A stretch of DNA of 64,000 bases from NCBI GenBank assembly GCA_038044745.1, contig JBBSZK010000002.1, positions 35,790 to 99,789 of the forward strand, written 5' to 3'. The notes below the pieces were generated by a model that was not told where the DNA came from, did not search any database, and worked only from the letters and a program-made list of their open reading frames with translations. Of the stretch, positions 8,981 to 43,786 are shown piece by piece. The DNA comes from Nanobdellota archaeon (GTDB taxonomy: Archaea > Nanobdellota > Nanobdellia > Pacearchaeales > GW2011-AR1). Position 1 is the stretch's first letter, and every line of letters begins with the position of its first letter. The translations under genes and the position numbers were made by a program.

Positions 8981-9381
8981 AGCACACCTCCTTTTATCGG
9001 AATACATAAGATTGTCGTCGGGAGTATTTAAATGTTTCTTATTTTCCGACGAGAAAACGCGTTATTTTTGAGTTACGACGATTTAAAGGAATTTCGACCA
9101 GATAATGTGCGGAACAATGAGGCACGATTGTAAGCATGAAAGGCCGAACAATACAAGATTCAATAACCCGACGACGACTATCGAGCCAAACGGCCACAAA
9201 CGGAAAAAAAACAAACCACGAGGTCAGAGCAACTCGACACGGGCGATGAAACACAAATAGAAGCGGCCACGTATACCTTGTACGAAACATTAGACCAATC
9301 CCCCGACGAAAGTAGCCTACACGCGAAACAAACAGAGAAAACCGTCGACGACGCGCCCTAAAAATAAACTGCTCAGACATA

Positions 9382-9693
9382 CTAGACGTCAGCCATTTCA
9401 GACTTAATCTTAGAAACCTTACCAAGACGCTCAGAAACCCGATCGATATCCGTCGATAATTTCTTTTTCTTCTCGCCAAGCTTCGCTTCCTTCTCCATGA
9501 GAGAAGCAATTTTCTGCTCAAGTTCTCGTTCAAGTTCTCGATCAACATCAATAGCCATAGAAACCTGCTTGAGTTCATCCTGCAACCTATTTTTATCACG
9601 CTTAAGTGCCTTTATTTGAACTTCTAAATCCTTAAAAGCCGTGGCCAAAAGAGAAGACGAGGAAGGCAAAACACCCTTCTTTTTTAACTTCAT
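9382..9693 (-). CDS. coiled-coil protein (103 aa), last gene of the surface-protein operon
   Basis: Heptad-rich sequence LEVQIKALKRDKNRLQDELKQ...ELERELEQKIASLMEKEAKL. Co-directional with and 23 nt downstream of the 9716..10726 gene. Confidence 0.4.
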   Translation of the reverse strand: MKLKKKGVLPSSSSLLATAFKDLEVQIKALKRDKNRLQDELKQVSMAIDVDRELERELEQKIASLMEKEAKLGEKKKKLSTDIDRVSERLGKVSKIKSEMADV

Positions 9694-9715
9694 CAGGCAA
9701 CAACGACGCTGGTGT

Positions 9716-10726
9716 TTATAAACGTTTCTTTAAACGCCTATCGAGAGCATCAAGTTTAGCACGCGTAGTCTTGTAGGTGGAAGAAGTGATATACCTCTTC
9801 TTATACGCCTCGATAAGAAGCTGCCGTTGATACATCAATTTTCGATGAGCTCTACGACCATCTTGTCCGCTACGTGCCTGCTTAAGTTGATCGTCCCAAT
9901 AAGTCGCGCTCGTGACCATACGTCTGCGCCACAAATAATTGATAACTAAAAAGCTTACAAGTAAAATCCCAATAACAACTAAGGCATAATAAAATGAAGC
10001 GTTGTTGACAAGGGGTGGAGAGAGCGAAACATTGTCCGTGCGTACAAAAGTTGTCGCCGTTCCATGCGACGTTCCCGCTACAATCTCAACTGCAAGTATA
10101 AGCGGACCGTCTGAAATAGATTCCGGCAAAGGGAGTGCGGGCGAAAGCTCAAGAGTGTTCTTGACGTCGACGGATTCAACAGTATATGCAATACGAGTAC
10201 CATCAAGAGCATACACCGAAGAGCGAAGTGTAGCTATAGGATGCAAAGAGCGCAAATTATAAAGTGTAATCTGGGGTATAAAAACGTCGCCTGCACGCAG
10301 TTCAGAATAAATCGGCAATTCTCGTATTGACGCGTCAAAAAGAGGAGATTTACTTTGCACTTCAAGAACGACCGGAATCGAAACCGTCATAAATCCCTCT
10401 GAAATATCAACCGAACCAACATAGATACCAGGAGAAAGAGAATCAAACCCTAACGAGAGACGCATCGAGATACTCTGACCGGTATCAAGGAAAAAGGAAG
10501 AACGATCAACACTAAAAAAGGAGTTTAGTGAATGAGCTGCAACAGAAAAAACAGTAGGCGCGCCCCTATTAAAAATAGATACTTCGCTCGACGCGAGTTC
10601 ACCAGGCTCTACGGTAATAGACACAAGCGGTTTATTAACTTCAAAAGTAGTTTCTTCGGAATCAGCCGAAACCAAGCCAGTTACAGAGATAAAGATAACA
10701 AACATAACCAAATGAATACCCCTCAT
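9716..10726 (-). CDS. surface protein: signal peptide, CARDB-like domain, TM helix and ~70-aa basic coiled-coil cytoplasmic tail
   Basis: MRGIHLVMFVIFISVTGLVSADS signal peptide. SSEVSIFNRGAPTVFSVAAHS is CARDB-like. TM segment YYALVVIGILLVSFLVINYLWRRR is followed by a basic tail. Confidence 0.6.
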   Translation of the reverse strand: MRGIHLVMFVIFISVTGLVSADSEETTFEVNKPLVSITVEPGELASSEVSIFNRGAPTVFSVAAHSLNSFFSVDRSSFFLDTGQSISMRLSLGFDSLSPGIYVGSVDISEGFMTVSIPVVLEVQSKSPLFDASIRELPIYSELRAGDVFIPQITLYNLRSLHPIATLRSSVYALDGTRIAYTVESVDVKNTLELSPALPLPESISDGPLILAVEIVAGTSHGTATTFVRTDNVSLSPPLVNNASFYYALVVIGILLVSFLVINYLWRRRMVTSATYWDDQLKQARSGQDGRRAHRKLMYQRQLLIEAYKKRYITSSTYKTTRAKLDALDRRLKKRL

Positions 10727-11748
10727 GCTGCCCTCCGATTACCTAATCCTTGCGACCCTCTTAATTGTTTCGCCTTACGATACGTTCTAAACGAATAAAA
10801 CAAGATAAGCAAGGATAACACAAGCAAAGCAATCAAAGCAATCAGCGAATAGTCTAACGCGGTTGTAGAAACGCTGAAGTACGCACTCGCAGTCGCAAAT
10901 CCCTGTGGATACACAATCTCTACCCCAACTAAATAATCTCCCTCTTTCAAACTCCTCGTATCAAACTCCTTCAGGTAACTCTTGCTACGAAGCACCCTAA
11001 ACGTCTCAGTTTCGGTAAAGAGCGTAACTCCATCGAAGTCTTTAATCGTATATGTCGCGGTAACGTCGGTATCCTCTGCAGGCCCGACTTGTTGAAGAGA
11101 AATGAATGCCTTAAGAACCTTGCCAAGACGAAACACCTTCATGGACTCGGGTACCGTAAGTGAAACGTCGAACAGCGCATTAGCACTATGTACGTTGAGA
11201 AGCAAAATAGCATCTTTTCGCTCGCCTGCCGCGCTAAAGACAACTCTTCCCCCATAAATGCCGCCCTCGGGAGCCCGAATAGTCAACGTAACCTGTCCCG
11301 AGGCACCCGGCTCGAGTGTAAGGCTCGAGCTATCCAGCGAAACAAACGAAGCAACACCCGTGAGTGAAACGGCAATAGTAAGTGATGCGCGCCCCGTATT
11401 GCGTATAGTAATAACACGTTCTTCGAGCGCACCCGCAACAATCCCGATATTCAATTCTTCAGGATCGACAGTAAAAAGTGCAGCAGGAACACTGGCTGCA
11501 CTTCCGCCACCGCTGCTGCTGCCTCCTCCCGATGGCCCTCCTGAATCGCCTGAATCATTAGTAGCATTTGAAGGCGGAGCAGTGATAGTGAGTGAAAACG
11601 TTCCGTCTGAACTCGCTTGTGCAGAAAGTGGAAGAGACCAAAAATCAGAGCTGAAAAACAAAAAAAAGGTAAATGCGTTACACACAAACGCGAGCATGAC
11701 AAACGCCAGAACGACTGATTGGTAACGCATAATATAAAGAGGAAGCAA
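10723..11748 (-). CDS. surface protein: signal peptide, Gly/Ser linker, CARDB-like domains and C-terminal TM + basic tail
   Basis: ERVITIRNTGRASLTIAVSL is CARDB-like. C-terminus LIALIALLVLSLLILFYSFRTYRKAKQLRG. 4-nt overlap with the downstream gene. Confidence 0.6.
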   Translation of the reverse strand: MLPLYIMRYQSVVLAFVMLAFVCNAFTFFLFFSSDFWSLPLSAQASSDGTFSLTITAPPSNATNDSGDSGGPSGGGSSSGGGSAASVPAALFTVDPEELNIGIVAGALEERVITIRNTGRASLTIAVSLTGVASFVSLDSSSLTLEPGASGQVTLTIRAPEGGIYGGRVVFSAAGERKDAILLLNVHSANALFDVSLTVPESMKVFRLGKVLKAFISLQQVGPAEDTDVTATYTIKDFDGVTLFTETETFRVLRSKSYLKEFDTRSLKEGDYLVGVEIVYPQGFATASAYFSVSTTALDYSLIALIALLVLSLLILFYSFRTYRKAKQLRGSQGLGNRRAA

Positions 11749-11760
11749 CGCTATAAAAGA

Positions 11761-12222
11761 TTATCTCCTAAATTCAAACTTAAGCGAACCCTCGTAAGAA
11801 CCAAAGGCTGTACCTGAAGGCACAAGAAGGGTAAATGACGCATTGTATCGAGAAAGTGGCTCAATTGTAAATGAAGGCTCAGCCGTAGTAAGATAAAGAT
11901 TCAAGGAAGGATCAATCAACACAGTAACACCCACCGGAAACGAATACGGATTATCGATAAAAACAACACGCGAGGAAACCGTATCGGGCAATACACGACC
12001 AAAAGTAAGTGAAGAAGTGTTTATCTCTAACCCTACCGAATCTCCTACCATAAACCGTACATCGAGTGCCCGCACATCAAACGGTCGAGAAAAAATGATA
12101 AACAAAGAAACGAACACAATTAAAAGACAAAAGAACGCAATCGCGAGTATCAAAGAAGAAGGCCTATGTATCACGATACTCTTCTCCGAGGAATAGCACG
12201 TTTCCTGCGCACAAAGAACCAT
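11761..12222 (-). CDS. membrane-anchored hypothetical protein (N-terminal TM); start uncertain because it overlaps the upstream gene
   Basis: Hydrophobic segment LILAIAFFCLLIVFVSLFIIF. Same operon and orientation. Confidence 0.4.
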   Translation of the reverse strand: MVLCAQETCYSSEKSIVIHRPSSLILAIAFFCLLIVFVSLFIIFSRPFDVRALDVRFMVGDSVGLEINTSSLTFGRVLPDTVSSRVVFIDNPYSFPVGVTVLIDPSLNLYLTTAEPSFTIEPLSRYNASFTLLVPSGTAFGSYEGSLKFEFRR

Positions 12223-13265
12223 GCCGCCAAGAGCGCGACAACAACGATTGCAATCACGAGAGCTACAACGGCAACATTAATCTTTTTCACAAATGCAAGA
12301 CTAACCGCCTGCTCGCTCGATAAGCCCTCATAGAAGAGCATAACACGAGCCTCAAAGGTATCATTAACAATCGAACTTGTATCGAAATAACCTTCGAGCG
12401 TCGCTCGACCAAAGGGACTAAGCACAACAGTAGGCGTCAAAAAAGAAATATCGCTTCCAAGAACAGTTACATTCGCGAAAACATTTTCAATAGGAGCATT
12501 CCACGCGCTTTCAATATCCAAGTTAATTTTATTAATAGAATCCCGCTCAAAAAAGCGAGTATAATTAAGAATGTGCACCTCAAGTGTACCAATACGAAAA
12601 GCCTTTTCGTCAATCGCATCAGCCTCACCATACACTGCATGGGCAACCACACGATAACTTCCCGGCGAATAGAGGGTGCTGTCAATCTCTGCATGAAACA
12701 CGGCAGAATCAGTAGAACCAAGTAACGATTGAGCAACCCCCAATCGTTCAACAAATGCCTCGCCACGATAAATATCAAGGTAGACATCAAACGAAGTTGT
12801 CTCTTTTCCACGATTAATAACTGAAATGTCAAAGGGAACGACTTCTCCCTTATTTACCGAAGACGTAGCGAGCGAAACTTCAAGATACCGCCCCGGATAC
12901 GGAACATAAATGAGAATCACTCCTCGAGGTTCTCCCGAAATCCCCAATCCGAGAAGGGAAGAGGTTTCAGCACCCGTGACAAACACTCGATGGATGCCCG
13001 GCACATCCGCCTCATCGGGAAGCGTTACATATACAATGACGGTACCTGTGCTTGAAGACGTTGAATCACTCAGCTGCGCATACTGCGCGAAATCTCCCTG
13101 CAAAGAGAAAGAAAATCGAGCTTCAGGGTTAGAGGAAAGAAAAGTAAACGGAAAGGCTGCCTTCAAGCCAGGTTCGTAATTAACTTCGTATCGTGCCGGA
13201 GTAAGTCCCGCGACAACAAGAGGGGCAACAAGCACAACAAAAAAGAACAAAAACAATCTCCTCAT
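12171..13265 (-). CDS. CARDB-like surface protein, paralog of the 14276..15514 gene (signal peptide, C-terminal TM + Arg-rich tail)
   Basis: Shared blocks with the paralog: AGLTPARYEVNYEPG vs LGITPGRTTLQFEPG, LIYVPYPGRYLEV vs HVLVPYPGKYAEP, SPGSYRVVAHAVYGE vs APGSYRAVVNVLYDE. C-terminus VAVVALVIAIVVVALLAAWFFVRRKRAIPRRRVS. Confidence 0.65.
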   Translation of the reverse strand: MRRLFLFFFVVLVAPLVVAGLTPARYEVNYEPGLKAAFPFTFLSSNPEARFSFSLQGDFAQYAQLSDSTSSSTGTVIVYVTLPDEADVPGIHRVFVTGAETSSLLGLGISGEPRGVILIYVPYPGRYLEVSLATSSVNKGEVVPFDISVINRGKETTSFDVYLDIYRGEAFVERLGVAQSLLGSTDSAVFHAEIDSTLYSPGSYRVVAHAVYGEADAIDEKAFRIGTLEVHILNYTRFFERDSINKINLDIESAWNAPIENVFANVTVLGSDISFLTPTVVLSPFGRATLEGYFDTSSIVNDTFEARVMLFYEGLSSEQAVSLAFVKKINVAVVALVIAIVVVALLAAWFFVRRKRAIPRRRVS

Positions 13266-13299
13266 ACGAGTAGAAAGAAAAAATAGTTTTTATACGTTT

Positions 13300-14004
13300 C
13301 TACGAGCACGGGCCCGGAGCTTGGCAATAAATCATATGGAAGTACGACGACAGATTACCCTGCAAAGAGTCATACGGCACCCTCAAACGAACGCCGATGC
13401 GCAATGAATCAGATCCGTCCGAAAATCTGAAAACGCCACATATGGGCGTGCCAGGATTAGTGGTATTAACATCAAAGAATAATCCGAGCGGAATTAACCC
13501 GCTCACACTAGGATTGACAGAGGAGTTATCCGTACCGCCCGTCGTATTAAGACAGCTACCTGAGTCTATATTTGAAACATTATACTCAAATCGAGGATTA
13601 GTGCCTCCCAACAATTGCGTAGAATTCTTACTTGTATAAAGCAGGATAGTTGCATTTACATTACCGATGTTCTCAAGAACAAACCCGCTCGAACCCGTAG
13701 CAGACCCAATTGACCACGAACCGCCAACCGCATTGATTGTACCACCCGCCTGATTAGTTGTTAAGTTTGCTTCCGACTGTCCCTCAGTCACGTATCCCGA
13801 ACCCCATTGAACAGAGCTATTCGTAAAATTAATGCTTAACAAAGTCGCAACCGTCAAGTTAAGCGTGGCGTTTGCCTGTGACGCAAACCCTGTCACCCAC
13901 GTATCACGAAACGCAGAAAGCGAATAATAACTAAACCCTGCTGAAAAAAGCGCAGAAAACGCCGCAAGCGCCGCAACTAAAACAAGCAATTGCTCGCCTT
14001 TCAT
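13300..14004 (-). CDS. secreted/anchored Asn-Ser/Thr-rich surface protein (sequon-dense)
   Basis: N-terminal hydrophobic segment LLVLVAALAAFSALFSAGF, then many N-x-S/T sequons (NATLNLT, NFTNSS, NLTTN, NATILLYTSKNST...). Confidence 0.5.
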   Translation of the reverse strand: MKGEQLLVLVAALAAFSALFSAGFSYYSLSAFRDTWVTGFASQANATLNLTVATLLSINFTNSSVQWGSGYVTEGQSEANLTTNQAGGTINAVGGSWSIGSATGSSGFVLENIGNVNATILLYTSKNSTQLLGGTNPRFEYNVSNIDSGSCLNTTGGTDNSSVNPSVSGLIPLGLFFDVNTTNPGTPICGVFRFSDGSDSLRIGVRLRVPYDSLQGNLSSYFHMIYCQAPGPCS

Positions 14005-14219
14005 GAACCTGCACCCGGACGAGGAAGTACCTGAAGCCCAACATCACTCGAAGGGTCTCCAACCGCAAGACCCGCGCCCGTCTGACGAACCGGCACAAAG
14101 TCCGACTTAAAACTATCACGTACGCTTAAAGAAACCATAACCGAAAGAACCGAAAACAACACAGCCACCGCCAACAACAACACAATAACCTTTGTCGAAA
14201 CACCCTGTTCAAGCGCCAT
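14001..14219 (-). CDS. small membrane protein (72 aa from MALEQGVSTKVIVLLLAVAVLF...)
   Basis: Internal Met gives a start just downstream of the previous gene's stop (14276). Single TM. The longer 105-aa track ORF would overlap its neighbour. Confidence 0.35.
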   Translation of the reverse strand: MALEQGVSTKVIVLLLAVAVLFSVLSVMVSLSVRDSFKSDFVPVRQTGAGLAVGDPSSDVGLQVLPRPGAGS

Positions 14220-14275
14220 CTTTTTACAAAAGAAACACTGAGAGGCACTATATAAAGATTTCGGGCAATAAACGA

Positions 14276-15514
14276 TTATTTCCGAGCAGAAAACTTTTTT
14301 CGTAACACTAAGAACCAAAGCACGTTAATAAGTACAAGTACGCCAATAATCGTCGCAAGCACAATAACAAGCGTATTAGACTCTCCCGAATCACCCGAAT
14401 CTTTCGAAATAACGTATCCCAACCCTATAACCGAGATATCATTAGAAGAAACTTTCAGCTTAAAGTCCTGCTGGTCCGAATGTTCGTCATATCTCAAAAA
14501 GACAGACGAATCATACGTTCCTTCCTTAACACCTTCCGTATCCCAGAACGTTACAAGCAACGCTTTCCCAAGCGCAGGCACCTCATACGTCGCAGACTTG
14601 AAGTTAGCCATAATCTCCCGTTGCGCATTATACACGACCATATCCGCATATGCCCCTGAAATCGGCTGACTCCACTTATTCTCAATTAAGAGCTCAAACT
14701 TAGCAATCTCCCCAAGACTAAAATCATTAACCTCGACATTCTGCAGCTCGAGGACGCGTTTACCCACTTCAAACGTTTTTTCAACCTTCGTAACGCCTTC
14801 GTCATAGAGCACGTTTACCACCGCCCGATACGAACCAGGAGCAACTGCAGAAGCATCCCACTCAGCAACAAGTTCAGCACGAGCACCACTTGCGAGCGAA
14901 ACTTCATTCGAACTAAGCGTAATAATTTTTTCATTAAGCGCAGTATATACTTCTACGGTGGCCCGCACCCTAACAAGATCAAGTTCGCCCCGACTTACCG
15001 TGGGAATTAAGAACGTAACTTTTCCCGAATCATCAGGACCTGCAATATTCAAATCGGGTTCGGCATATTTCCCTGGATACGGAACAAGCACATGCAACTG
15101 TGTCGTCACTCCGACCGCAGCACCGACAAACGTTGCACCTGTCGCACCTCGTTTTGGCAACTTTATCACTATTATTTCAGCTGTGCGCGTACCGGGCGTG
15201 AGCGTCGAAGGTGCCCTGAAAACATAACTTAATTTCTTTTCAGATTCGCTTGCCGCAACATCCCACGAAGTAGTCGAAAGTGCAATCGTCTGATTTAACT
15301 CCCCCTGCACTAAGAGTACCAATTGCATATCTTCCTGCTCTGAATTGATAACTGTAAACTCAACGGTTTGTTCAACCCCGGGTTCAAACTGCAACGTTGT
15401 ACGCCCGGGAGTAATTCCCAATGCACTAACCTGCATCACCACAAGAACCACCATCCCTGCGAACATAAACAAACGTTTCAGGTCAATCATGTTGCCCTCC
15501 AATGAAAGAATCAC
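14276..15514 (-). CDS. CARDB-like surface protein (signal peptide, C-terminal TM + basic tail), paralog of 12171..13265
   Basis: Signal peptide MFAGMVVLVVMQVSALG. CARDB-like strands (VSRGELDLVRVRATVEVYT). C-terminus LVIVLATIIGVLVLINVLWFLVLRKKFSARK. Confidence 0.65.
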   Translation of the reverse strand: MILSLEGNMIDLKRLFMFAGMVVLVVMQVSALGITPGRTTLQFEPGVEQTVEFTVINSEQEDMQLVLLVQGELNQTIALSTTSWDVAASESEKKLSYVFRAPSTLTPGTRTAEIIVIKLPKRGATGATFVGAAVGVTTQLHVLVPYPGKYAEPDLNIAGPDDSGKVTFLIPTVSRGELDLVRVRATVEVYTALNEKIITLSSNEVSLASGARAELVAEWDASAVAPGSYRAVVNVLYDEGVTKVEKTFEVGKRVLELQNVEVNDFSLGEIAKFELLIENKWSQPISGAYADMVVYNAQREIMANFKSATYEVPALGKALLVTFWDTEGVKEGTYDSSVFLRYDEHSDQQDFKLKVSSNDISVIGLGYVISKDSGDSGESNTLVIVLATIIGVLVLINVLWFLVLRKKFSARK

Positions 15515-15977
15515 CTGCTTGTTCTAATGACTCGTCAGGAGCGAGAATTATTTTTCCCGTTAAAACGCCCTTATTGTACACGTCCACGTTCAAACGAGAA
15601 GTTCCCGCATTAGTAATGTCATAGCCCGCATCAGACACGCGCACCTGCAAATCAACAACCGATTCAACCGTAATCTGTCTAATCTCGCTCGGTAAAACTC
15701 CTTCGACCATCCAGTAATAAGTGCCCGGCTCGAGAGTAATGAGTGCTTTATCACGCACCGAAATACGTTGCGGCGACGTGAAGTCAACCGTGTCATCAAT
15801 TAACAAGAAGTCTCCACGTTCAAACGAGAAGAGCACGGCACCCGTAGCAATAACTCCATTCGAAGGAGTATTCAACAACGGAGTCGCGTAAAAGAAAGCC
15901 CAGACGACAAGCGCAAGCGTTCCCACTACTAAAAGTGCATCAACCCCGTACACTATTTTTTTACGCATATTATTCAC
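15483..15977 (-). CDS. N-terminally anchored small surface protein
   Basis: TM segment ALLVVGTLALVVWAFFYATPLL. 8-nt overlap with the giant gene's stop. Confidence 0.5.
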   Translation of the reverse strand: MNNMRKKIVYGVDALLVVGTLALVVWAFFYATPLLNTPSNGVIATGAVLFSFERGDFLLIDDTVDFTSPQRISVRDKALITLEPGTYYWMVEGVLPSEIRQITVESVVDLQVRVSDAGYDITNAGTSRLNVDVYNKGVLTGKIILAPDESLEQAGDSFIGGQHD

Positions 15978-18900: not shown

Positions 18901-21900
18901 ATTCTGTTCGGCGGCTCCATTCACCGAAAGGCTAAAATTACTATTCAAAAGTAGTTCGGCATTCTGAAGACTAACATTGACCGTTGTATTTGTTCCAAAA
19001 TCAACGGAGGTAAAGCGTTGTTCGCCCCGAGAAAAATAACGAACAGAAGCATTAGAAAAAATTTGAGAAACTTCTGAATCAGTAAGAGAGACATTAAATA
19101 TCATTACTTCATCAATGAGACCATTAAAAGCGCTAGACCCCTCTGAACCGAAGAGAAGAGGATTATTATTAAGCTTGAGCGCCTTGCTCCCTGAAACCAG
19201 AACGCGAGCTACGGGACTACCGTCCCGGTAAAGTGTAACTCCTCCGGTAGTATTATAAGTACAAAAAAAATTATACCATTGATTTTTTGACATAACCAAA
19301 GAATCAGTCGCAGCAAAATTGGTACCATCGGCGCGCTTCACAAGACAGCGCATGTTCATGCTAGCATTAGGTGTAAGCGCAAAGGTAAAATCAGAACCAG
19401 TTCCTTTAATCATGACGCGCCCAGACGACGTGCCAGAACCTCCCGACCAATTAATCCAAGCTCCCCAACTCAAATTTAAAGGTAAGTCAAAAAGACTTTC
19501 GTTGAAAGTTACATTAACAAGATCGTTCGTGCCATCAAAAAATGCGCTTGCTCCAAGAAAACCGAGCCTCGCAAACGCACCACGTTGATAAGAACCATCA
19601 CTACTATGAGAAGAAAAGTCAAAAGCAGTAATGTTATCATCTCTATCGAAAGGCCAATACCCCCTAAGGTCAGAGTAAGGAGCAGAGTTGCCAACCGTCA
19701 GATGAGTAAACAACGTTTCTTGAGTCACGTTTTGGTCTGTTGAACTACTCGCAACAAGCGTGGGGTCAACAATATGGTCAAACATCATGCTTCCATTAAG
19801 CACATGCAAATCAAATACATCTTGACTATAATTTTCAGGAAGCTCGGTCAAATAAATAGTATAATAACGCTCATCAGTCACATCATCAAACACGGCAAGC
19901 GTCGTATTCTGCGATGTCTCATACACCTTCACGAAAGGAGTGCCATTCAGCACACGCGGATAGAGCGTGATATCATTCGCCCGCGTCAAATTGCGTTCAA
20001 ACGTCACGCGCACGTAATGTCCGTCCGGAATCGGCTCACTCCAATTCCCATCGAGTTCCTTCACAGACTCGTACACATCGGAAACAAAAGTGCGATTCTC
20101 ATCAAGGTGGTCTGCTTTTGTAATAACAATAATCTCATAAGTCTGATTAGAAAAGTGTGGCACAACCCACGCCACCGAATCAATAAATCCATCCCCATCA
20201 CTATCCGTCGCTTCAAACGGAACCAAAACCTGTGCAAGAGAAGCAACCGTGACATTTTCTGAAACGGGGCGGACCGAAATCCACGCCGAATCGGATGTGT
20301 TGTCCACCTCAGCGTCTGAATTGTCAACAAATTCTGCAACAACGGCGCCCGTGAGTGAAGCCCCCTCAGAAGATTCATTCAACATCGAATCTTCCGACTC
20401 CGAAATAGTCGAAGAGTCGTTAGTTTCAGCAAGTGATTCATCTACAAGAATTTCATCAGAAAAAACATCAGACGCCGTTGCAAGATGAGCACTGTCAATT
20501 TCATCAACAAGAGCCATATCAGCTACCTCATCTTGCAACTTAAGGCTACTATAATTAACGAAGGTATCGGGAGTAAGCCATGCCAACTGAATAGTAGAGG
20601 GCTTAGTAATCCGTAACTCGTTCGGAAGAGAAGCAATCACGACCACATCAGAATAATTAAGCGCCTCAGACGCAACAAGCGTTATCGTCTTTCCTCGTGC
20701 CTGCGAAATTTCTACTGCCGCAGGAGGTGCGGTATAGTATTCGACCGTATATGCCGTAGCCCCTGCATCAAGCACGACCTCGGAAGAAGACTCGTATGAG
20801 AACGCCTCTCCCGCTCCGAGAGAAGCCGACTGATTAGAGAGTTCAGACGTAGCGTTATCAGAAGCAACCGATTCAACAGAAATATCACTCGTAACCTGTC
20901 CCGTACCTGCAACAACGGCCCCTGCAATCCAAGATGCAAAAGAAGGACGCGATTCAATAAGCGCCGTAATCTGTCCCGTAAGCGGAACAGAAAGAGTGAC
21001 GTTATCTGCCTGAACAGAGTCTCCCATCGAATCAAAGGCAGTAACACTCACGTTCTCTGCGCCAGCAGGAAGCGGCAACACGAAAGAAGAACCATCGGGA
21101 ACGCTTACGTTCGTCACCCAGTACACCGGTTGACCCAGCACAACTTTAGTACGGCGAGTTGTAAATGAAAACGTCGAGGTCCGGCTCACGACCGAAAATT
21201 CATTACTTTCGACCGAGTCGCCAGCAGACGTAAACGCCCGTATGCGCGCAGTGCGCACACCGACAAAGGGCTGCGCCGCACGCACATCCATAAAAGATCC
21301 TTCAAACGAAACAACCATATCCGAAGCAATAAGTTCGTAAGCATCAGCGCCAATAAAATACGTGCTCAAATCAAGGCGCGCACTGTAGTTCTCATCAAGA
21401 GAAAGAGAAGGAATAGTCTGCAATAGCATCAACGTGTCATTAGCAATAGTCTCATTCACAATTGTTTCATTCACTAACGTCTCGTTAAACACATCAAGGA
21501 CTTCTACAATTGTTTCGTTCTCTTCCGTAGAAGCAGCAAGCGTCAGCTCCGAACTATCGTCTACCAAGGTTACCCCTCCAAAAACAGCGGTAAGACTCAG
21601 ACGTGTAGCGTTACGTACTACAAGGTCGAACAAATCGAGAGGAATGCGCACCCGATATCGGCTCTCTCCCCGATAATCCTGCCCAAATCCTGAAAGGTTC
21701 ACTGAATAAGAACTGGACACGCGCACCGACGTCCCTTCCTGTTCAACAAGCACAAAAGAATCAGAAAGTTCTTCGCCAGCAGACCCACGCACACTTCCCG
21801 AAACTAACTGAGCCGTATACCCTTTAGAGAGCCCATACTCAAACGAATCCATTCGCGAGGCGGTACCCATAATAATATCGTTCTCATCCGAAATAACCCC

Positions 21901-22773
21901 TCCCGTTATAGTCCCCCCGCGTTCGCTTGAGCCGCCATCAGAACCAGAATCGTCCGTACCCTCTTCAGAATCAGTACTCTCGCTACCTGACTCATCATCG
22001 TCCACTTCCTTCTTCTCTTCTTTTTCTTCCTTCTCCTGTTTTTCTTCCTTCTTCTTTTCTTCGGCATCTGCAGGTGTATCGCTTCCTTCGACCCCTTGTT
22101 CAGAACCACTATCAGAGCCCTCTTCAACAGAGATAACTTCACCACCGTCTTCTAAATCAGAAGAAGAAACCTCCTCATCTACTCTCGTATCAGTTGCATC
22201 GCCTTCGTCAGAACCTGCATCGCCAGAACCACCATCAGAAGAATCCTCTTCCATCGTGCGTGTTGCGCGCAATTCAAACGTAACGTCGGGATACATAACG
22301 TTCGTTCCAGCAAGACCATATCCGGTACCGGTACCTTCCAAGTCAAATCCCTCCGCATAGAAATCACCCTCAATCGATGCAATCGTGCTTCCCGCCAAAA
22401 GTTCATGCAAGGAATACGTTTTTTCAACATCACCCAAGCGAGCCGTTATAGAAGTTGTAGCAGGAAGCAACTCGCCTTCATTAAAGATAAGTGTAAACAC
22501 ACCTTGCACTCGTTCCCCAGGAAGGTATGTACCGGAACTCTCGAATAAAACGCGTCCCGTAATAGAACGCTCGTAACTTACACCTAACCAGATAGAAAGC
22601 AAAACGAGAAAAGAGATCCCAAGAAAAAGAGAAACCCCGTAAGTTCTCTTACGTTCACCGACGACAGAACTACCTAGATACGTAGTAACAATTTTTCCGT
22701 TGACACGTTCAGTTTTGTAATAATACGGCCCAAATCGTTTGCCATCTTTGTAGGTATATTTCTTGTGCACCAC
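15970..22773 (-). CDS. giant surface protein (2267 aa): 45-aa N-terminal leader + TM, acidic low-complexity region, parallel beta-helix (PbH1-like) repeats, LamG/ConA-like domain, very high N-x-S/T density
   Basis: TM segment GVSLFLGISFLVLLSIWLGV. Acidic stretch EEKKKEEKQEKEEKEEKKEVDDDESGSESTD. LamG-like block LRGYWPFDRDDN...FDGTNDLVNV...FNGLIDEVMIFNVSLTDSEVSQIF. Beta-helix repeats NISILGSGYWMVNSTYNYT...NLSITSASTGISITAA...NNTAGILISAQDVWFENSYINSS. Confidence 0.75.
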   Translation of the reverse strand: MVHKKYTYKDGKRFGPYYYKTERVNGKIVTTYLGSSVVGERKRTYGVSLFLGISFLVLLSIWLGVSYERSITGRVLFESSGTYLPGERVQGVFTLIFNEGELLPATTSITARLGDVEKTYSLHELLAGSTIASIEGDFYAEGFDLEGTGTGYGLAGTNVMYPDVTFELRATRTMEEDSSDGGSGDAGSDEGDATDTRVDEEVSSSDLEDGGEVISVEEGSDSGSEQGVEGSDTPADAEEKKKEEKQEKEEKEEKKEVDDDESGSESTDSEEGTDDSGSDGGSSERGGTITGGVISDENDIIMGTASRMDSFEYGLSKGYTAQLVSGSVRGSAGEELSDSFVLVEQEGTSVRVSSSYSVNLSGFGQDYRGESRYRVRIPLDLFDLVVRNATRLSLTAVFGGVTLVDDSSELTLAASTEENETIVEVLDVFNETLVNETIVNETIANDTLMLLQTIPSLSLDENYSARLDLSTYFIGADAYELIASDMVVSFEGSFMDVRAAQPFVGVRTARIRAFTSAGDSVESNEFSVVSRTSTFSFTTRRTKVVLGQPVYWVTNVSVPDGSSFVLPLPAGAENVSVTAFDSMGDSVQADNVTLSVPLTGQITALIESRPSFASWIAGAVVAGTGQVTSDISVESVASDNATSELSNQSASLGAGEAFSYESSSEVVLDAGATAYTVEYYTAPPAAVEISQARGKTITLVASEALNYSDVVVIASLPNELRITKPSTIQLAWLTPDTFVNYSSLKLQDEVADMALVDEIDSAHLATASDVFSDEILVDESLAETNDSSTISESEDSMLNESSEGASLTGAVVAEFVDNSDAEVDNTSDSAWISVRPVSENVTVASLAQVLVPFEATDSDGDGFIDSVAWVVPHFSNQTYEIIVITKADHLDENRTFVSDVYESVKELDGNWSEPIPDGHYVRVTFERNLTRANDITLYPRVLNGTPFVKVYETSQNTTLAVFDDVTDERYYTIYLTELPENYSQDVFDLHVLNGSMMFDHIVDPTLVASSSTDQNVTQETLFTHLTVGNSAPYSDLRGYWPFDRDDNITAFDFSSHSSDGSYQRGAFARLGFLGASAFFDGTNDLVNVTFNESLFDLPLNLSWGAWINWSGGSGTSSGRVMIKGTGSDFTFALTPNASMNMRCLVKRADGTNFAATDSLVMSKNQWYNFFCTYNTTGGVTLYRDGSPVARVLVSGSKALKLNNNPLLFGSEGSSAFNGLIDEVMIFNVSLTDSEVSQIFSNASVRYFSRGEQRFTSVDFGTNTTVNVSLQNAELLLNSNFSLSVNGAAEQNFSYNGSAYVVTGYPLTGNLTSANVSLFHYAGTNSFYTPILIGNLTYEGYGINLADITFPVVSLMHPSNDSSASFPIVYFAANISDNINVSNATLYIWNATSLIGTNFSSLNVSQGIVNLSFVLPRNDTYVWNYYAGDNSSNYAMNATNWTLRTLTMPLDICVNLSQANSVYTQIGTLVPSGVTPCISVDAPNISILGSGYWMVNSTYNYTVIFSDEYNTTISGVNISLSSEGPFGWGIHLNHSNNARVFNTTLISGDIGLLVEWANVTVLDTLWFKDNDVGARVVIRSNQINVTNSVFTNTTTGVSLIGTGSYIANAFISNLSITSASTGISITAATRPIVSDVVVSQSALGVSIDSLSSGTNLSRLSLHNNTAGILISAQDVWFENSYINSSTFYGLRISTAAKVGIFRNLTFVRNNISLHFLPTTGALRDHNFTNIFVHNSTGPALVFNVNGISAALDRMNFTNLSVIGTNSSYPDLQFIASGTDLQNIRFEDSYFANYSFADTGGRYFTFESSLFGKIKFLDYINGSGINLSADVRIVNNSATVRNEVNSGLNTTANVTLTGISTNFVNPVILKDDVAGCVDCYNFTDLNAGTVIFNVSRWSNYSIGVVSNRAPAATLVHINSTSGSNKTEQDLNCYTTLSDPDANTFLNASVFWYNNSVLHLVSDYNTSYANASVFIATLDDRNTTKGHNWTCGVRVFDGFLYTGPFNATYNVTVLNTIPNITHLAPPDASRTTNRTPVLNFTVFDADDEGATWQLNVSLVATSACTDISHFYSATVTGLLGGTNVSYAVVPDLRCLYDNLDYYNWTVRVNDSDGMSGWTVPWRINISSVVSITLLNNSIDFGSLDYLQWNDTSDDAPLPFLLENDGNSFVNVTITSTHLWETQSGGSNYFQFKAANYSSELGSFIWAQSQTAYAAIPLSDGLPESPLLCFSSFNYTDTTDTAEIDINVTVPINEPPGVRRANVTLVASLSE

Positions 22774-22822
22774 TTTTTGTAAGAGAACCTCGACTCAGTT
22801 CCACATTGTAAAGAGAAAAGAC

Positions 22823-22832
22823 CTTTATAAGC
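22823..22832 (-). promoter_or_regulatory. TATA-box-like element (TTATAAAGG on minus strand) ~50 nt upstream of the giant-gene ATG
   Basis: Shares the 15-mer aaaagacctttataa with the gyrB upstream region. Confidence 0.3.
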
Positions 22833-22947
22833 ATTTCGCACAGGTGACCGACGATAAAAAAAGAGTTCTCTTACAGATATCGGGCTCCCCGAATCCAATA
22901 CTTTTCTTCTCCAACTTCCAATTCAGTTAAACTATTGATGCCAATAG

Positions 22948-24294
22948 TCAAAGAGAGGCAATAGAATAGGCGCCTTCGCCCGGAACTTCAATGACTACAT
23001 TCTCCTGATCAAGCGCAGTACGATTAAAACAACCTGAACAAAAAACTCCGTTGCGCGTAATAAAAAGAGGAGATGTACCCAAAGAGAGATTATAGAAGGT
23101 TACAAGAGAAGGTGTATCGAAAAATGAATTTCGCGAGGCGTTGATAGAAACAAAGTTATGAAGAATAACAATTTCTTCCGACAAATTCAAACCGGTTCCT
23201 TTAACACCGTTATAGAAATAGACGGAGCCCAGGTTAGTGCGACTTAGGGTAAAGGTACTTAACTTGTCGAGAGTATACGGACCGATAGGGGTATCAACAA
23301 AAACATGGTTGTTGCTGCTTGCTAAAACCAAGGCCAAATCATTGAAATTGGTGGGCGTATCAACAAAACGAGTGCGAACCAACGTCAGATTAGAATTTCC
23401 AGAATCCGCAGAAAGGATTTGATTCGTAATCGGGGCAACAAAAGCCGAATCGATAAAGAGTGTATTTTTTACTCCAAACAATCTAACGGATGCTCCATTA
23501 TGAAAAGAAGTAAAGTTAACAAAAGAGTTATGTGTTCCTGAAGAAGGAAAGGTAATTCCCTTATCACCATTATTACGAGTAGTTACATCAACGAAGAAAT
23601 TATATGAGGGGGCAGGCTTACCAAATCCGTAGCCTTCATTTCCAATGAAAAACCCATCGTCTATATTGGAATCTGCAACAAGCCGCTCAAATCGATTGAA
23701 GGAGCTATTCCCTTGTATAACAACACCTTTCATACGATTATGTATCATCAGCCCTCCAGAAAACCGCGAAGAAAGAACTTCGGTTAAACGCAATCCAATT
23801 TGACACTCCTCCACCCTCGGATTGAGAATAACGGCCGAGTGAACCGCGTGTAGGTGGATACCTTCTTTACCACAGTCAAAAACCCGAACGTTAGACACCC
23901 GAGGTCGAGCAGCGTTAGAAATAACAATGCCTCTGCTTAACGAAGTCCCCTCGAAAGAAACCGTACAATTTCTCAAAGTAGTATCATTTTGGTTAGAGTA
24001 AATGCCGATACCTTCTGTCGAACCTAAAATAGTTCGATCCCGACAATCAAGCGTGACACGAGGGGCCGTAATGTTAATACAAACCGTGCCCGAATTGAAT
24101 AAAATATCCCGTTTCAAAGCATAATAAGCCCCCGATATATTTAATTCAGAACAGGACTCAAGATGGGAAAGCCTTAATGCAGGCATGTTTTGAGGCAACG
24201 TTTCAGGAGACGCGGAGGCAAAAAGAAAAAAGCCCAAAATCAAAAACGAAACAACAAGCAAAATTAGACCGTTACGCATACAATCAGGACTCAA
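22948..24294 (-). CDS. secreted right-handed beta-helix protein (pectate-lyase-like fold, PbH1 repeats), Cys-rich N-terminal region
   Basis: Signal peptide with ASA cleavage-site-like motif. Repeats such as GIVISNAARPRVSNVRVFDCGKEGIHLHAVHSAVILNPRVEECQIGLRL are typical of parallel beta-helix proteins. Confidence 0.6.
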   Translation of the reverse strand: MSPDCMRNGLILLVVSFLILGFFLFASASPETLPQNMPALRLSHLESCSELNISGAYYALKRDILFNSGTVCINITAPRVTLDCRDRTILGSTEGIGIYSNQNDTTLRNCTVSFEGTSLSRGIVISNAARPRVSNVRVFDCGKEGIHLHAVHSAVILNPRVEECQIGLRLTEVLSSRFSGGLMIHNRMKGVVIQGNSSFNRFERLVADSNIDDGFFIGNEGYGFGKPAPSYNFFVDVTTRNNGDKGITFPSSGTHNSFVNFTSFHNGASVRLFGVKNTLFIDSAFVAPITNQILSADSGNSNLTLVRTRFVDTPTNFNDLALVLASSNNHVFVDTPIGPYTLDKLSTFTLSRTNLGSVYFYNGVKGTGLNLSEEIVILHNFVSINASRNSFFDTPSLVTFYNLSLGTSPLFITRNGVFCSGCFNRTALDQENVVIEVPGEGAYSIASL

Positions 24295-24339: not shown

Positions 24340-24735
24340 TTAATACCCAAAAAAGCTTTTCTTATCACCCTTGAGCGAGCGATACTTATCGTGAAGGAAT
24401 TTTATATTGTCTTCGCATACGAAATCGTGCTGTCGAAAACCTCCCCCGAACGTCTTAGGAATATGCAAAAGCTCATGAATAATCACTTTGTCTTGCTCCT
24501 CGCGGGACATTCGTTCAAACCGCTCAAGAAATTCAATCGCGTAGTGGGCTTTCACGCCAATCGTTTGTTGCATGAGCTTGCCAATTGTATGACATCGTGC
24601 AATCGTTCGCTTTGTACTCGAGCCCTTACTCCGAAAGCATTTAACGCGTGTCAAATCAACATGCTCAAGCGCAAGCGTGCGTACAATATCTTCCATTCGT
24701 GTTTGTAAATCAGATGCAAATTCGTATTTCACCAA
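24340..24735 (-). CDS. putative Zn-dependent metallopeptidase (HExxH)
   Basis: IIHELLHIPKTFGGGFRQHDF carries an HExxH motif with a downstream His. Small, 131 aa. Confidence 0.5.
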   Translation of the reverse strand: MVKYEFASDLQTRMEDIVRTLALEHVDLTRVKCFRSKGSSTKRTIARCHTIGKLMQQTIGVKAHYAIEFLERFERMSREEQDKVIIHELLHIPKTFGGGFRQHDFVCEDNIKFLHDKYRSLKGDKKSFFGY

Positions 24736-24793
24736 ATATCACCTCGTCAAGCAATACATTAATTGACTGTTTTTAATCTTTGTTATAAAACAA

Positions 24794-26662: not shown

Positions 26663-26703
26663 CGCGCAACAAAAGAAAAGGAGTATAAAAATCCTTAGAA
26701 AAA

Positions 26704-29174: not shown

Positions 29175-29218
29175 AGAAAAATCAGCAAAAACATCTATTT
29201 ATACGTTTGGAAAGATCG

Positions 29219-43358: not shown

Positions 43359-43786
43359 GCAGTAGAAGAAAAGAAACAATTAAACATGATGAAAGCCCTG
43401 TAAGAAAAATAGTACAAGACTCTAAAAGAGAAAAGTATAACAAATTTTTAAGCTTAAAGGCCGCCCTACATTATAAAGATGCTTATCTCGTTATGGAAGG
43501 AGATTGTGGAGGACAGATTTATTTAACTGTTCCAGTAAAATTTGTAAAATGTAATGAAAAAACCCTTAGAAGTCTTTTGAATGAAATAGATTCTTTGGCT
43601 TGGAAAGACCCAGAATGCGCAGGTTTTTATTTTGAAAGAAGACCTAAAGGAGAGATTCTTATAGGCGGTATGGGGGGAGGAAAGATTCAAGACGATCTAT
43701 GGGTGCATAAAGAACTTGAATATCTCAAGGAAAAAATAAGATTAATTTTGAAAGGAAAGGTTAACGCAGATGATTTGATAAAATGA
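43355..43786 (+). CDS. putative cognate immunity protein of the RHS toxin
   Basis: 143-aa ORF whose start overlaps the toxin stop (ATGA). This is the canonical position for polymorphic-toxin immunity genes. No known motif. Confidence 0.45.
   Translation: MSSRRKETIKHDESPVRKIVQDSKREKYNKFLSLKAALHYKDAYLVMEGDCGGQIYLTVPVKFVKCNEKTLRSLLNEIDSLAWKDPECAGFYFERRPKGEILIGGMGGGKIQDDLWVHKELEYLKEKIRLILKGKVNADDLIK

Follow-up and report, generated by a model that had tools for sequence, protein, structure and literature searches.

The 15-kb region described here carries a gene cassette that is real, strongly conserved and hitherto without annotation, from groundwater archaea that are tiny and probably symbiotic, and lies within a window of 64,000 nucleotides of a Nanobdellota archaeon (contig JBBSZK010000002.1). 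The key new result, overlooked in the initial annotation, is that, as judged from sequence comparison, the small exported protein p234 is a homolog of the C-terminal domain of a giant protein encoded in the same cassette. With moderate confidence we interpret the core of the cassette as a conserved surface adhesin-display system, for which we propose a mechanism of holders, clients and a stalk. The product of the cassette is most likely a stalk or fibre, coated with sugars, on which a giant sticky protein is displayed, and how such cells might attach to other cells becomes testable.

Organization and conservation of the locus

Eleven ORFs, all on the minus strand and mostly encoding exported proteins, occupy positions 9382-24294 (Table 1). 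As had been noted of these co-oriented genes, their ends overlap or nearly abut, the junctions being short overlaps or gaps of at most 34 nt, with the sole exception of a 174-nt spacer that separates the giant gene from the beta-helix gene. This spacer contains a T7 run (22856-22862) and a TTATAAA box (22824-22830), and the beta-helix gene, found free-standing upstream of the giant gene in this lineage only, is probably a separate transcription unit with its own signals. Instead of the single 15-kb operon initially proposed, the region consists of three parts: the lineage-specific beta-helix gene, a seven-gene core (giant adhesin, s164, A, s105, p234, B and s153, in this order) and an optional four-gene accessory module (C341, D336, cc103 and x113) found in ~30% of loci.

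Table 1. Features of the locus, with likely true starts as corrected from homolog lengths and NCBI gene calls.
Feature	Coordinates	Strand	Likely start	Description
Beta-helix protein	22948..24294	-		Secreted 448-aa right-handed beta-helix protein (PF13229, E 1e-15)
Giant	15970..22773	-		ORF; exported glycoprotein, 2267 aa; probable adhesin
Giant, residues 1088-1236	19066..19512	-		LamG / concanavalin-like lectin domain (PF13385, E 1.3e-19)
Giant, residues 1577-1901	17071..18045	-		Beta-helix-like segment (BLASTP against the 448-aa PF13229 protein)
Giant, ~residues 2102-2267	15973..16470	-		p234-like C-terminal domain (hhalign and HMM matches to p234)
s164	15483..15977	-	15968	N-terminal TM anchor, ~135-aa beta-rich ectodomain
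A	14276..15514	-	15490	Signal peptide, three Ig-like domains, IGxGYVIS, C-terminal TM helix, RKK tail
s105	14001..14318	-	~14219	Small TM protein, probably 72 aa
p234	13300..14004	-		Exported beta-sandwich module of ~190 aa, rich in sequons; proposed subunit of a stalk or fibre
B	12171..13265	-		Paralog of A; signal peptide, three Ig-like domains, C-terminal TM helix, Arg-rich tail
s153	11761..12222	-	12174	Likely 137 aa; N-terminal TM anchor and single ASH/PapD-like Ig domain
C341	10723..11748	-	11730	Signal peptide, short strand, Gly/Ser linker, Ig domains, C-terminal TM helix, basic tail
D336	9716..10726	-		Paralog of C341; TM helix 244-262, 74-aa basic cytoplasmic tail
cc103	9382..9693	-		Cytoplasmic coiled-coil protein; accompanies C341 and D336
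x113	9039..9380	-		Small Arg-rich membrane protein; gene call, often after cc103

An N-terminal hydrophobic segment is present in 10 of the 11 proteins, in agreement with the signal peptides claimed earlier. The C-terminal TM helix and Arg/Lys tail ascribed to several of them were likewise borne out, the C-terminal strings quoted being exact: A, B, C341 and D336 bear such a helix, followed by a basic tail that is short in the first three. Neither PGF, PEP nor LPXTG occurs at the C-terminus of any cassette protein, as had been said of sortase-type tripeptides.

The order of the core genes recurs in ~80 species representatives, so the ORFs are not products of chance, nor are the genes scattered or non-conserved among relatives, an outcome against which the initial annotation had warned. 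Among loci having upstream sequence, s164 was found in 66/66 and the C-terminal module of the giant in 64/66; p234 and B were each present in 46/50 loci, s105 and s153 each in 43/50. The order s105>p234>B>s153 is kept in 36 loci, duplication variants besides: s105 always stands before p234, the pair is co-duplicated in three loci (L008, L042 and L079), and p234 has one to four copies per locus. The same GTPase/metallopeptidase pair adjoins the cassette in several relatives, from which the cassette looks vertically inherited. Three small components with an N-terminal anchor, s164, s105 and s153, had previously been overlooked and are likewise conserved; the core belongs to Nanoarchaeota (Woesearchaeales and Pacearchaeales).

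Within the accessory module, C341 and D336 form a second paralog pair (E 1e-9; hhalign 99.8%). C341 also aligns with B (hhalign 97%) and, the TM segment left out, with s153 (96.9%), and has below-threshold matches to PF22544 (E 5e-5) and choice-of-anchor D (E 2.5e-5). Among loci with enough downstream sequence C341 occurs in 12/41; cc103, which has weak coiled-coil-type matches only and lacks a TM segment, occurs in 11/41 and is inverted jointly with D336 in one locus (L076). The membership of x113, which occurs in 12/41 loci and in L024 and L062 has a different position within the locus, is doubtful.

The giant protein and the domain it shares with p234

The giant begins with a conserved ~34-aa cytoplasmic N-motif, kept in full-length relatives, followed by a TM helix (residues 47-65) and an ITGR motif; its middle is hypervariable, and its last ~380 aa form a conserved module. 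Length among relatives ranges from ~1600 to >3100 aa. The PF13385 and PF13229 matches agree with the original description of a giant LamG/beta-helix protein next to a secreted beta-helix protein, and the beta-helix-like segment of the giant aligns with the latter over 354 columns (24% identity, BLASTP E 1.6e-10). LamG and beta-helix domains are frequent glycan binders.

The last ~165 residues of the giant are homologous to p234 (family-versus-family hhalign 98.5%, E 3e-15), and the relationship persists after removal of TM segments (98.8%, E 7.5e-17). The p234 HMM matches the giant with E 3e-20, the reciprocal match having E 1.5e-27. The 234-aa protein carries a conserved Cys pair and belongs to a family of 1747 cluster representatives, for which no Pfam family was found. 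Both proteins are rich in N-x-S/T sequons (113 versus 35 expected in the giant, 12 versus 4.3 in p234), and an enrichment of 2.3-2.5x holds for p234 and the related C-terminal stretch of the giant. Per 100 aa, sequons number 6.1 in the C-terminal module of the giant and 4.2 in the p234 family, versus 0.45 in A, 0.61 in C341, 0.46 in D336 and 0.60 in s105, all of them sequon-depleted families.

A large, very sequon-rich exported protein encoded beside beta-sandwich proteins with C-terminal TM anchors might also belong to an S-layer or envelope module, the giant forming a lattice or canopy and A, B, and also C341 and D336, serving as membrane stalks, in the way that SlaB holds SlaA in Sulfolobales. 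The Haloferax S-layer protein 7ptp_A is indeed among the Foldseek matches of A (E 3e-7). We nevertheless consider this interpretation improbable: the N-terminal part of the giant varies ~two-fold in length, and also in domain content, between related species, its LamG and beta-helix domains are of adhesin type, no S-layer family is matched at threshold, and it would be left unexplained why its C-terminal domain has a small stand-alone paralog, which is sometimes multicopy.

The AF2 monomer of p234 has a pLDDT of 75, falling below 50 at residues 22-52, and leaves the post-signal N-terminal segment unplaced. Its non-viral top Foldseek matches are nearly all donor-strand filament subunits, at a best E of 6.7e-3 and a TM-score of ~0.3, and include the thread 7pnb (top), TLP-1a, FimG/FimF/FimA/PapE and CanA. 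No WxL chain stands among the best 50 matches, and neither WxL motifs nor a PF13731 match were found in p234. That p234 polymerises is a possibility that we put forward tentatively. The small protein s105, which has a conserved short extracellular strand motif, was also considered as a strand-only mini-subunit, a tempting reading that lost significance, its similarity to the p234 N-terminus vanishing once the TM segment is removed.

Ig-type membrane proteins and the proposed mechanism

A and B, paralogs as first claimed, align end to end (28% identity, BLASTP E 1e-32; hhalign 100%), so the failure to align that was to tell against their relationship did not occur. Divergence is lowest in the A family (mean p-distance 0.54, versus 0.57-0.70 in the other six), the best 120 of its 406 relatives sharing 48-100% identity, and its IGxGYVIS motif is invariant. 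The AF2 model (pLDDT 86.6) comprises three beta-sandwiches and a helix at 379-410. An invariant basic residue, K149, lies at the D1-D2 hinge and R38 near the mature N-terminus, a pair that may resemble Arg8/Lys112 of PapD. The invariant ITPGR motif is borne by a split N-terminal strand, as described likewise for the DUF916 domain of WxLIP (PMC10599100). Foldseek retrieved hydin-type ASH arrays, the WxLIP chains 9i25_C (bound to a long WxL protein; E 5e-10) and 9i1y, and the PapD-like chaperone YadV (E 2e-7), the WxLIP match standing among many generic Ig-array matches (integrins, C3, hydin). The matched WxLIP is the WxL-interacting protein of Enterococcus (E. faecium).

The CARDB-like identity first given to these proteins is not supported: at E<=1, CARDB is matched by none of the proteins of the window, and among relatives by only 1/25 of A and 1/28 of B (E ~2e-3). 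The recurrent weak signals are instead WxLIP_HBD for A (PF11797, in 9/25 relatives) and, for s153, the ASH/Cep192/TMEM131 type, which is PapD-like, all Pfam matches behind these assignments being below curated thresholds; no recurrent Pfam signal was found among 28 relatives of B. In 27 relatives of s153, Cep192_D4 was matched in 12, ASH in 7, WxLIP_PGBD in 2 and TMEM131_like_N in 1, and its PDB sequence matches are FAP65, CFAP74 and hydin (best E 1.7e-4). The Ig domains of the cassette are of the PapD/ASH/WxLIP kind.

Loose Ig-domain ('CARDB/COG1361-like') surface proteins, co-transcribed and acting independently, for instance in substrate or glycan binding, would need no joint apparatus. Ig-like folds are generic and the family assignments all below threshold, glycan binding is common for LamG and beta-helix domains, and Csc clusters were initially proposed for carbohydrate use, according to work cited in PMC9772566. 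Such independence is improbable in our view, given that gene order and stoichiometry are invariant over a phylum-level radiation, that CARDB membership failed, and that a joint machine is favoured by the domain common to p234 and the giant, by the sharp division into two glycosylation classes and by the correlated divergence.

Co-variation of distance matrices resolves two blocks, {giant C-terminus, s164, A} and {s105, p234, B, s153}, which coincide with gene adjacency and which linkage instead of binding could explain. In the former, s164 (mean column identity 49%; no Pfam or PDB relatives found) co-evolves with A (partial correlation 0.74); in the latter, B co-evolves with s153, s105 and p234. 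We propose that A, tethered to the membrane, holds or chaperones the C-terminal domain of the giant, and that B does so for p234. In the proposed mechanism, all components would be exported or inserted by the Sec route, including two heavily N-glycosylated clients having the same ~165-aa beta-sandwich module, alone in p234 and at the extreme C-terminus of the hypervariable LamG/beta-helix adhesin. In the membrane, the poorly glycosylated, highly conserved A and B, each with three Ig domains on a C-terminal TM helix, together with the small N-anchored s164 and s153, would bind the client modules via beta-strand augmentation, A and s164 serving the giant, and B, s153 and s105 serving p234. The giant would then be presented to a host cell or glycan surface on a stalk anchored in the membrane, which may be a fibre of p234 linked by donor strands. 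What the data show directly are the content and order of the genes, their homologies, folds, topology signals, sequon bias and co-variation blocks; the structure models are of monomers, and physical binding, strand complementation, polymerisation and a role in host attachment are inferred.

The same parts could form a static complex of WxL/Csc type, with no filament, in which A and B would each grip a single p234-type domain through non-covalent contacts at the membrane and p234 would be only a 1:1 scaffold for the giant, like the presumed role of small WxL. Its parts list agrees with WxL clusters, A resembles WxLIP, two holders and two clients accompany two co-varying blocks, and nothing positive speaks for polymerisation. 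The giant also retains its N-terminal TM helix; this helix and the conserved cytoplasmic N-motif suggest that it may be anchored by its N-terminus, which fits poorly with a position at the tip of a fibre unless it is cleaved. We regard a static complex as rather unlikely, however, the closest structural matches of p234 being filament subunits and not WxL, its copies numbering 1 to 4 per locus versus a single B, and its post-signal N-terminal segment being unplaced in the monomer model.

The dedicated cell-surface apparatus of the initial annotation stands, with a conserved cassette, a giant LamG/beta-helix protein and Ig-type paralogs anchored by a C-terminal TM helix. Its suggestion of host interaction, made for an episymbiont, has become plausible since the organism is a DPANN archaeon of the Woesearchaeales type, the attachment function itself being conjectural.

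Comparison with known surface systems

WxL/Csc clusters consist of a small WxL, a large WxL, a WxLIP (DUF916-DUF3324-TM helix) and often a small LPxTG protein. In these clusters, the small and the large protein have the same C-terminal domain and are accompanied by a partner of Ig-Ig-TM make-up and often by a small protein with an anchor (PMC9772566, PMC10599100); for WxLIP, it has been proposed that the Ig partner donates a strand that inserts into the client (PMC10599100). The cassette likewise combines, in one cluster, a ~200-aa exported protein and a large multidomain protein with a common terminal domain, a tandem-Ig partner on a C-terminal TM helix and extra small anchored proteins, and A has recurrent sub-threshold PF11797 and Foldseek matches to E. 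faecium WxLIP. In contrast, its host is archaeal and presumably devoid of peptidoglycan, its common domain has no Trp-x-Leu motifs, PF13731 match or detectable WxL-chain fold match, A has three Ig domains instead of two, there are two paralogous holders, the conserved s164 and s105 have no WxL-cluster counterpart, and the clients are heavily N-glycosylated.

Bacterial chaperone-usher pili (Fim/Pap) have PapD-like chaperones and two-domain tip adhesins. In the giant, as in FimH, a subunit-like domain at the C-terminus comes after a binding region; FimG/FimF/FimA/PapE are among the matches of the p234 model, the chaperone YadV is among those of A, and s153 falls in the ASH/PapD-like superfamily. 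The cassette differs in having neither usher nor outer membrane and in its putative chaperones, which are membrane-tethered and three-domain; no membership of PF00345, PF02753 or fimbrial families was found for cassette proteins.

Among archaeal donor-strand filaments, Sulfolobus threads (Saci_0406), bundling pili (AbpA), Pyrodictium cannulae (CanA) and haloarchaeal Tat-fimbriae were compared. They share with the cassette small, Sec-exported, heavily N-glycosylated beta-sandwich subunits; the thread subunit is the top Foldseek match of p234, with CanA also listed, and, as a further likeness, a paralogous 'minor' protein is encoded along with the thread subunit (PMC9715654). No sequence relationship between these subunits and the cassette was detectable. 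A chaperone-like protein was not found in the thread locus (PMC9715654), and cannulae are called chaperone-free in the title of 10.1101/2024.12.30.630787, whereas in the cassette four to five Ig-type membrane proteins are conserved and a subunit-like domain is fused to a giant adhesin. By analogy, the cassette may best be read as following, in archaea, the logic of the Gram-positive WxL/Csc clusters, and possibly that of chaperone-usher systems too.

Organization and conservation of the gene cluster

The eleven minus-strand open reading frames (ORFs) at 9382-24294 meet at overlapping or nearly overlapping junctions, in agreement with the initial annotation, which had described at least nine such co-oriented genes, and a hydropathy scan placed an N-terminal hydrophobic segment in ten of the eleven, consistent with the signal peptides proposed there. 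The same scan located the suggested C-terminal transmembrane (TM) helix with basic tail in A, B, C341 and D336, the tail being short in the first three and 74 aa long in D336, while a motif scan of the C-termini recovered neither LPXTG, PGF-CTERM nor PEP-CTERM, bearing out the absence of a sortase-type motif. A full-length alignment of A and B, named as clear paralogs, shows 28% identity (E 1e-32). C341 and D336 constitute a second paralog pair, and all four proteins, together with the single-domain s153, are linked by profile comparison. The description of the giant as a beta-helix/LamG protein was also upheld, since it contains a LamG domain (E 1e-19) and another segment resembling the PF13229 beta-helix protein encoded upstream.

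Features of the cluster and the rest of the window, with the number of related loci encoding each cluster protein
Feature	Position (strand)	Description	Related loci
x113	9039..9380 (-)	accessory module	12/41 with >=8.5 kb downstream
cc103	9382..9693 (-)	accessory module	11/41 with >=8.5 kb downstream
D336	9716..10726 (-)	accessory module, C-terminal TM helix	12/41 with >=8.5 kb downstream
C341	10723..11748 (-)	accessory module, C-terminal TM helix	12/41 with >=8.5 kb downstream
s153	11761..12222 (-)	small N-anchored protein	43/50 with >=4.5 kb downstream
B	12171..13265 (-)	three-Ig protein, C-terminal TM helix	46/50 with >=4.5 kb downstream
p234	13300..14004 (-)	234-aa exported protein	46/50 with >=4.5 kb downstream
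s105	14001..14318 (-)	small N-anchored protein; TM protein of ~65-72 aa at 14001-14219 (-), directly upstream of p234	43/50 with >=4.5 kb downstream
A	14276..15514 (-)	three-Ig protein, C-terminal TM helix	
IGxGYVIS motif	14400-14440 (-)	residues 360-370 of A	
s164	15483..15977 (-)	small N-anchored protein	66/66 with upstream sequence
giant	15970..22773 (-)	2267-aa putative adhesin	64/66 with upstream sequence (large protein with the giant's C-terminal module at its end)
giant N-terminus	22576-22773 (-)	residues 1-66	
beta-helix gene	22948..24294 (-)	PF13229 beta-helix protein	this lineage only
metallopeptidase	24340-24735 (-)	phage-type fold, PF18894 E 4e-19	
pilin-like gene	24794-26662 (-)	622 aa, 22 Cys	
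GTPase-like gene	26704-27879 (-)	391 aa, N-terminal GKPNVGKS P-loop	
tandem paralogs	28242-30163 (-)	310 and 314 aa, DxGCGDGKK motif (SAM-methyltransferase-like)	
low-GC region	30446-58000	GC 0.30-0.39	
integrase-like ORF	30446-31594		
Shedu SduA	32902-34017		
ResIII helicase and N6/N4 DNA methylase	34080-38008		
B12/radical-SAM protein	38959-40410		
FG-GAP/TcdB/RHS/LamG protein	43783-49521	1912 aa	
TraG/HerA-type ATPase	51456-53702		

The window matches a contig of the groundwater MAG GCA_964363815.1 (Hainich), labelled Nanoarchaeota/Woesearchaeota. Relatives of A numbered 406, the best 120 being 48-100% identical and uniformly near 400 aa in length. When one genome of each GTDB species was scanned, 140 encoding stretches emerged, and 80 loci were analysed by calling ORFs and building iterated HMMs for each window protein. 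Synteny is maintained among them, the order s105>p234>B>s153 recurring in 36 loci; the exceptions mostly carry extra copies of p234 or extra s105+p234 pairs. The free-standing beta-helix gene was found in this lineage only among the related loci compared and, not being kept in relatives, was rejected as part of the system; the spacer between it and the giant gene holds a T7 run, together with a TTATAAA box some 54 nt ahead of the GTG start. The locus counts, the gene order and the lineage-limited beta-helix gene together resolve the proposed single 15-kb operon, correct as to its co-oriented and conserved genes, into a core of seven genes (giant to s153), an optional module and a lineage-specific neighbour. 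None of the other ORFs in the window matches the HMMs of the cassette.

The GTPase/metallopeptidase pair found here at 24340-27879 immediately precedes the cassette in several relatives, where it is syntenic and 63-69% identical; this arrangement points to vertical inheritance. The GTPase-like member is named from its P-loop motif alone. The labels of about 76 of the 80 loci read Woese-, Pace-, Parv- or Nanoarchaeota, or just 'archaeon', and so does that of the window, which encodes the archaeal ribosomal proteins L7Ae, S28e and L24e. Four loci (L008, L031, L028 and L064) bear the labels Patescibacteria, 'bacterium' or Methanosarcinales, with A 47-54% identical; the longer two, L008 and L031, keep the usual gene order up to the end of the contig. 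The loci without a DPANN label are probably mis-binned or mis-assigned MAG contigs.

The 622-aa protein is encoded within the interval spanned by the GTPase/metallopeptidase pair. Its N-terminus, MLKRGMSPIIITLFIIVLSLGAVTVVW, is of the archaeal class-III (type IV pilin-like) kind, and it matches acidic double-disulfide repeats at a score under the curated cut-off (E 5e-5). As relatives have the GTPase/metallopeptidase pair directly beside the giant gene, this protein was discarded as a cassette component. Further along, the low-GC region (GC 0.41-0.48 elsewhere), which adjoins the integrase-like ORF, resembles an integrated element or a defence island.

A module shared by p234 and the giant protein

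Homology links p234 to the C-terminal ~165 residues of the giant (hhalign 98.5%, E 3e-15), a relationship retained after removal of the TM segments (98.8%, E 7.5e-17) and recovered by reciprocal HMM matches within the window (E 3e-20 and E 1.5e-27). The blocks common to both are NLTV..INFT..WGSG, ENIGN, YxxNVSN and a C-terminal strand pair, D..IRID..L.IP..G. Small p234 and the large giant, with their one shared C-terminal domain, are encoded together in 46 of 50 loci; outside this module, the length and domains of the giant vary widely among species. The p234 family comprises at least 1747 cluster representatives at 50% identity, mostly of 200-220 aa, and no Pfam family was found for it.

Two other similarities did not survive the same trimming. 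The p234-C341 match fell from 93% to 7.6% without the TM segment, and the hhalign score between s105 and the p234 N-terminus, which had suggested a homologous strand-only mini-pilin, dropped from 94.8% to 1% without the TM helix, leaving that reading as no more than an idea. The 98% score between s105 and C341 is due to Gly-rich low complexity. s105 itself carries a short, conserved strand motif on the extracellular side and in many cases a Gly-rich tail; its gene is always found directly upstream of p234 and has been duplicated jointly with it in three loci (L008, L042 and L079).

At its other end, the giant begins with a cytoplasmic motif of ~34 aa, VHKKYTYKDGKRFGPYYYETKRVNGKVVTTYLG, followed by a TM helix and then [FIL]TG[NRFY][AV]S, an arrangement common to full-length giants in many related loci; a similar motif, TG[FYR][AV], follows the hydrophobic segment of p234. 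This N-terminal motif could serve in targeting, in anchoring or as a site of processing and, given the cytoplasmic motif and TM helix, the giant may stay N-terminally anchored.

The AF2 model of p234 reached a pLDDT of 75, with residues 22-52 unplaced (pLDDT <50). Its top Foldseek matches, all weak (E>=6.7e-3), were the Sulfolobus thread subunit, the TLP-1a fibril, FimG/FimF/FimA/PapE and CanA, whose common theme is that of donor-strand subunits; a search of p234 against PDB sequences gave no match to Saci_0406 or to Fim/Pap proteins. A DPANN origin of the TLP-1a pond fibrils, the second of these matches, was dismissed, as they trace to Flavobacteriales-like proteins (PMC11494351).

Ig-type membrane proteins and two co-varying sets

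In the AF2 model of A (pLDDT 86.6), a signal helix leads into three beta-sandwich domains, after which come a disordered linker and a long C-terminal helix. The motif IGxGYVIS, invariant or nearly so, closes the third Ig domain 10-14 residues before the TM helix, with the linker after it, and has no equivalent in B; its role may be that of a functional strand or of a recognition site. Foldseek matches of A in the PDB included hydin-type ASH arrays, the Enterococcus faecium WxLIP (the WxL-interacting protein of Gram-positive WxL/Csc clusters) alone (9i1y) or bound to a long WxL protein (9i25_C; E 5e-10, TM-scores 0.26/0.40, amid many generic Ig arrays) and the PapD-like chaperone YadV (5ghu; E 2e-7, TMt 0.46). 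PF11797, the host-binding domain of WxLIP (DUF3324), scored 20.7 bits on A against a cut-off of 28.9; nine of 25 A-relatives also matched it (best E 7e-6), and one of the 25 matched PF06030 (DUF916); a profile search of A against PDB sequences did not reach WxLIP.

Among 27 relatives of s153, Cep192_D4 was detected in 12 and ASH in seven, TMEM131-N was also seen, and the PDB sequence matches were FAP65, CFAP74 and hydin, so that on profile evidence s153 is assigned to the ASH/PapD-like superfamily. C341 gave weak signals for PF22544 and choice-of-anchor D, and TIGR01167 touched B only in its TM segment (E 0.47). All matches of the Ig proteins in Pfam and NCBIfam lie under curated thresholds, and PDB sequence and profile searches with A, p234, B and s164 returned nothing useful. 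The CARDB-like label of the initial annotation was not sustained: CARDB (PF07705) gave no match at E<=1 in ten cluster proteins, touching one of 25 A-relatives (E 2.9e-3) and one of 28 B-relatives (E 1.8e-3), and the recurrent weak signals point instead to WxLIP and ASH/PapD-like domains.

N-glycosylation sequons are enriched 2.3-2.5-fold in the p234 and giant C-terminal families (4.2 and 6.1 per 100 aa), in contrast to their depletion in A, C341, D336 and s105 (0.45-0.61); B (1.3) and s153 (1.9) are intermediate. Furthermore, A is the least diverged family (mean p-distance 0.54 vs 0.57-0.70 in the other six). Both observations fit a division between exposed structural or adhesive clients and membrane-proximal machinery. 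Distance-matrix co-variation over 39 single-copy loci separated two blocks, one of the giant C-terminus, s164 and A and another of s105, p234, B and s153, with partial correlations of 0.74 for s164-A, 0.50 for B-s153 and 0.40 for p234-s153. This suggests two parallel sets, each of a client, a small N-anchored protein and a three-Ig C-anchored protein, a pattern that linkage could mimic.

Proposed mechanism and comparison with known systems

On the basis of the parallels with WxL/Csc and chaperone-usher systems and of the two co-variation blocks, we propose that A and B act as membrane-tethered holders or chaperones. Through strand augmentation they would bind modules of the p234 type, and in this way would anchor, or assemble, a glycosylated stalk or fibre on which the giant adhesin is presented. 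That this binding takes place, that a polymer forms and that the system attaches to a host are all inferred. A bolder version, which we consider rather unlikely, is that the cassette encodes the first archaeal donor-strand-exchange pilus with dedicated chaperones, serving host attachment in Woesearchaeales and Pacearchaeales. Tethered PapD/WxLIP-like A and B would then keep hold of the p234 subunits, and of the giant by its subunit-like C-terminal domain, and would hand these modules into a glycosylated fibre with the hypervariable adhesin at its tip; WxL/Csc systems, chaperone-usher pili and archaeal threads would thereby form one mechanistic class.

Among the uncultured archaea of groundwater and freshwater, Woesearchaeales and Pacearchaeales rank with the most abundant; they are presumed symbionts, and we know of no defined attachment structure in either. 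The cassette constitutes a concrete, conserved seven-gene candidate for one, and we found no description of it in the literature searched on archaeal WxL proteins, DPANN donor-strand assembly, or Woese- and Pacearchaeota surface adhesins. If its Ig-type proteins do hold or chaperone, the principle of WxL/Csc and chaperone-usher systems would extend to a wall-less archaeal envelope. It would also fill the chaperone gap left by the study of Sulfolobus threads, in which a chaperone-like protein was not found in the locus and the assembly pathway was called unknown (PMC9715654).

WxL/Csc clusters encode a small WxL protein, a large protein with the same C-terminal domain and an Ig-Ig-TM WxLIP, predicted to insert a strand into WxL, often adding a small anchored protein (PMC9772566, PMC10599100). 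The parts list of the cassette runs parallel: a small protein, a large one with a shared domain, a putative Ig-TM partner and a small anchored protein. However, PF13731 was not found in the giant or in 20 p234 relatives (E<=1), the conserved p234 columns lack a W-x-L pair and the top 50 Foldseek matches of p234 include no WxL chain. The hosts also differ: 91% of WxL proteins occur in Firmicutes, which are walled with peptidoglycan, whereas the cassette resides in archaea, which presumably have none.

Similarly, the cassette resembles chaperone-usher systems in its adhesin with a subunit-like C-terminal domain, its PapD-like Ig proteins and a subunit reminiscent of donor-strand pilins, but its cluster contains no usher-like match or large beta-barrel candidate, all of its proteins being accounted for as Ig-type, small TM or adhesin. 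PapD-family Pfam domains (PF00345/PF02753) had no match in the cluster proteins or in the A- and B-relatives searched. Unlike the subunits of type IV pili and archaella, p234 shows no [KR]G cleavage motif in its consensus N-terminus (MKxxNxLL), and the cluster encodes neither an ATPase nor a polytopic membrane protein, grounds on which p234 was rejected as a type IV pilin; unlike sortase- or archaeosortase-anchored proteins, the cluster proteins have no C-terminal motif before the TM helix. By its defining features, the cassette is neither a CARDB, WxL-domain or type IV pilus system nor a chaperone-usher one, the usher being absent, nor do its proteins carry a sortase-type anchor motif. By analogy of its parts, it nonetheless appears to share its working logic with the WxL/Csc and chaperone-usher systems.
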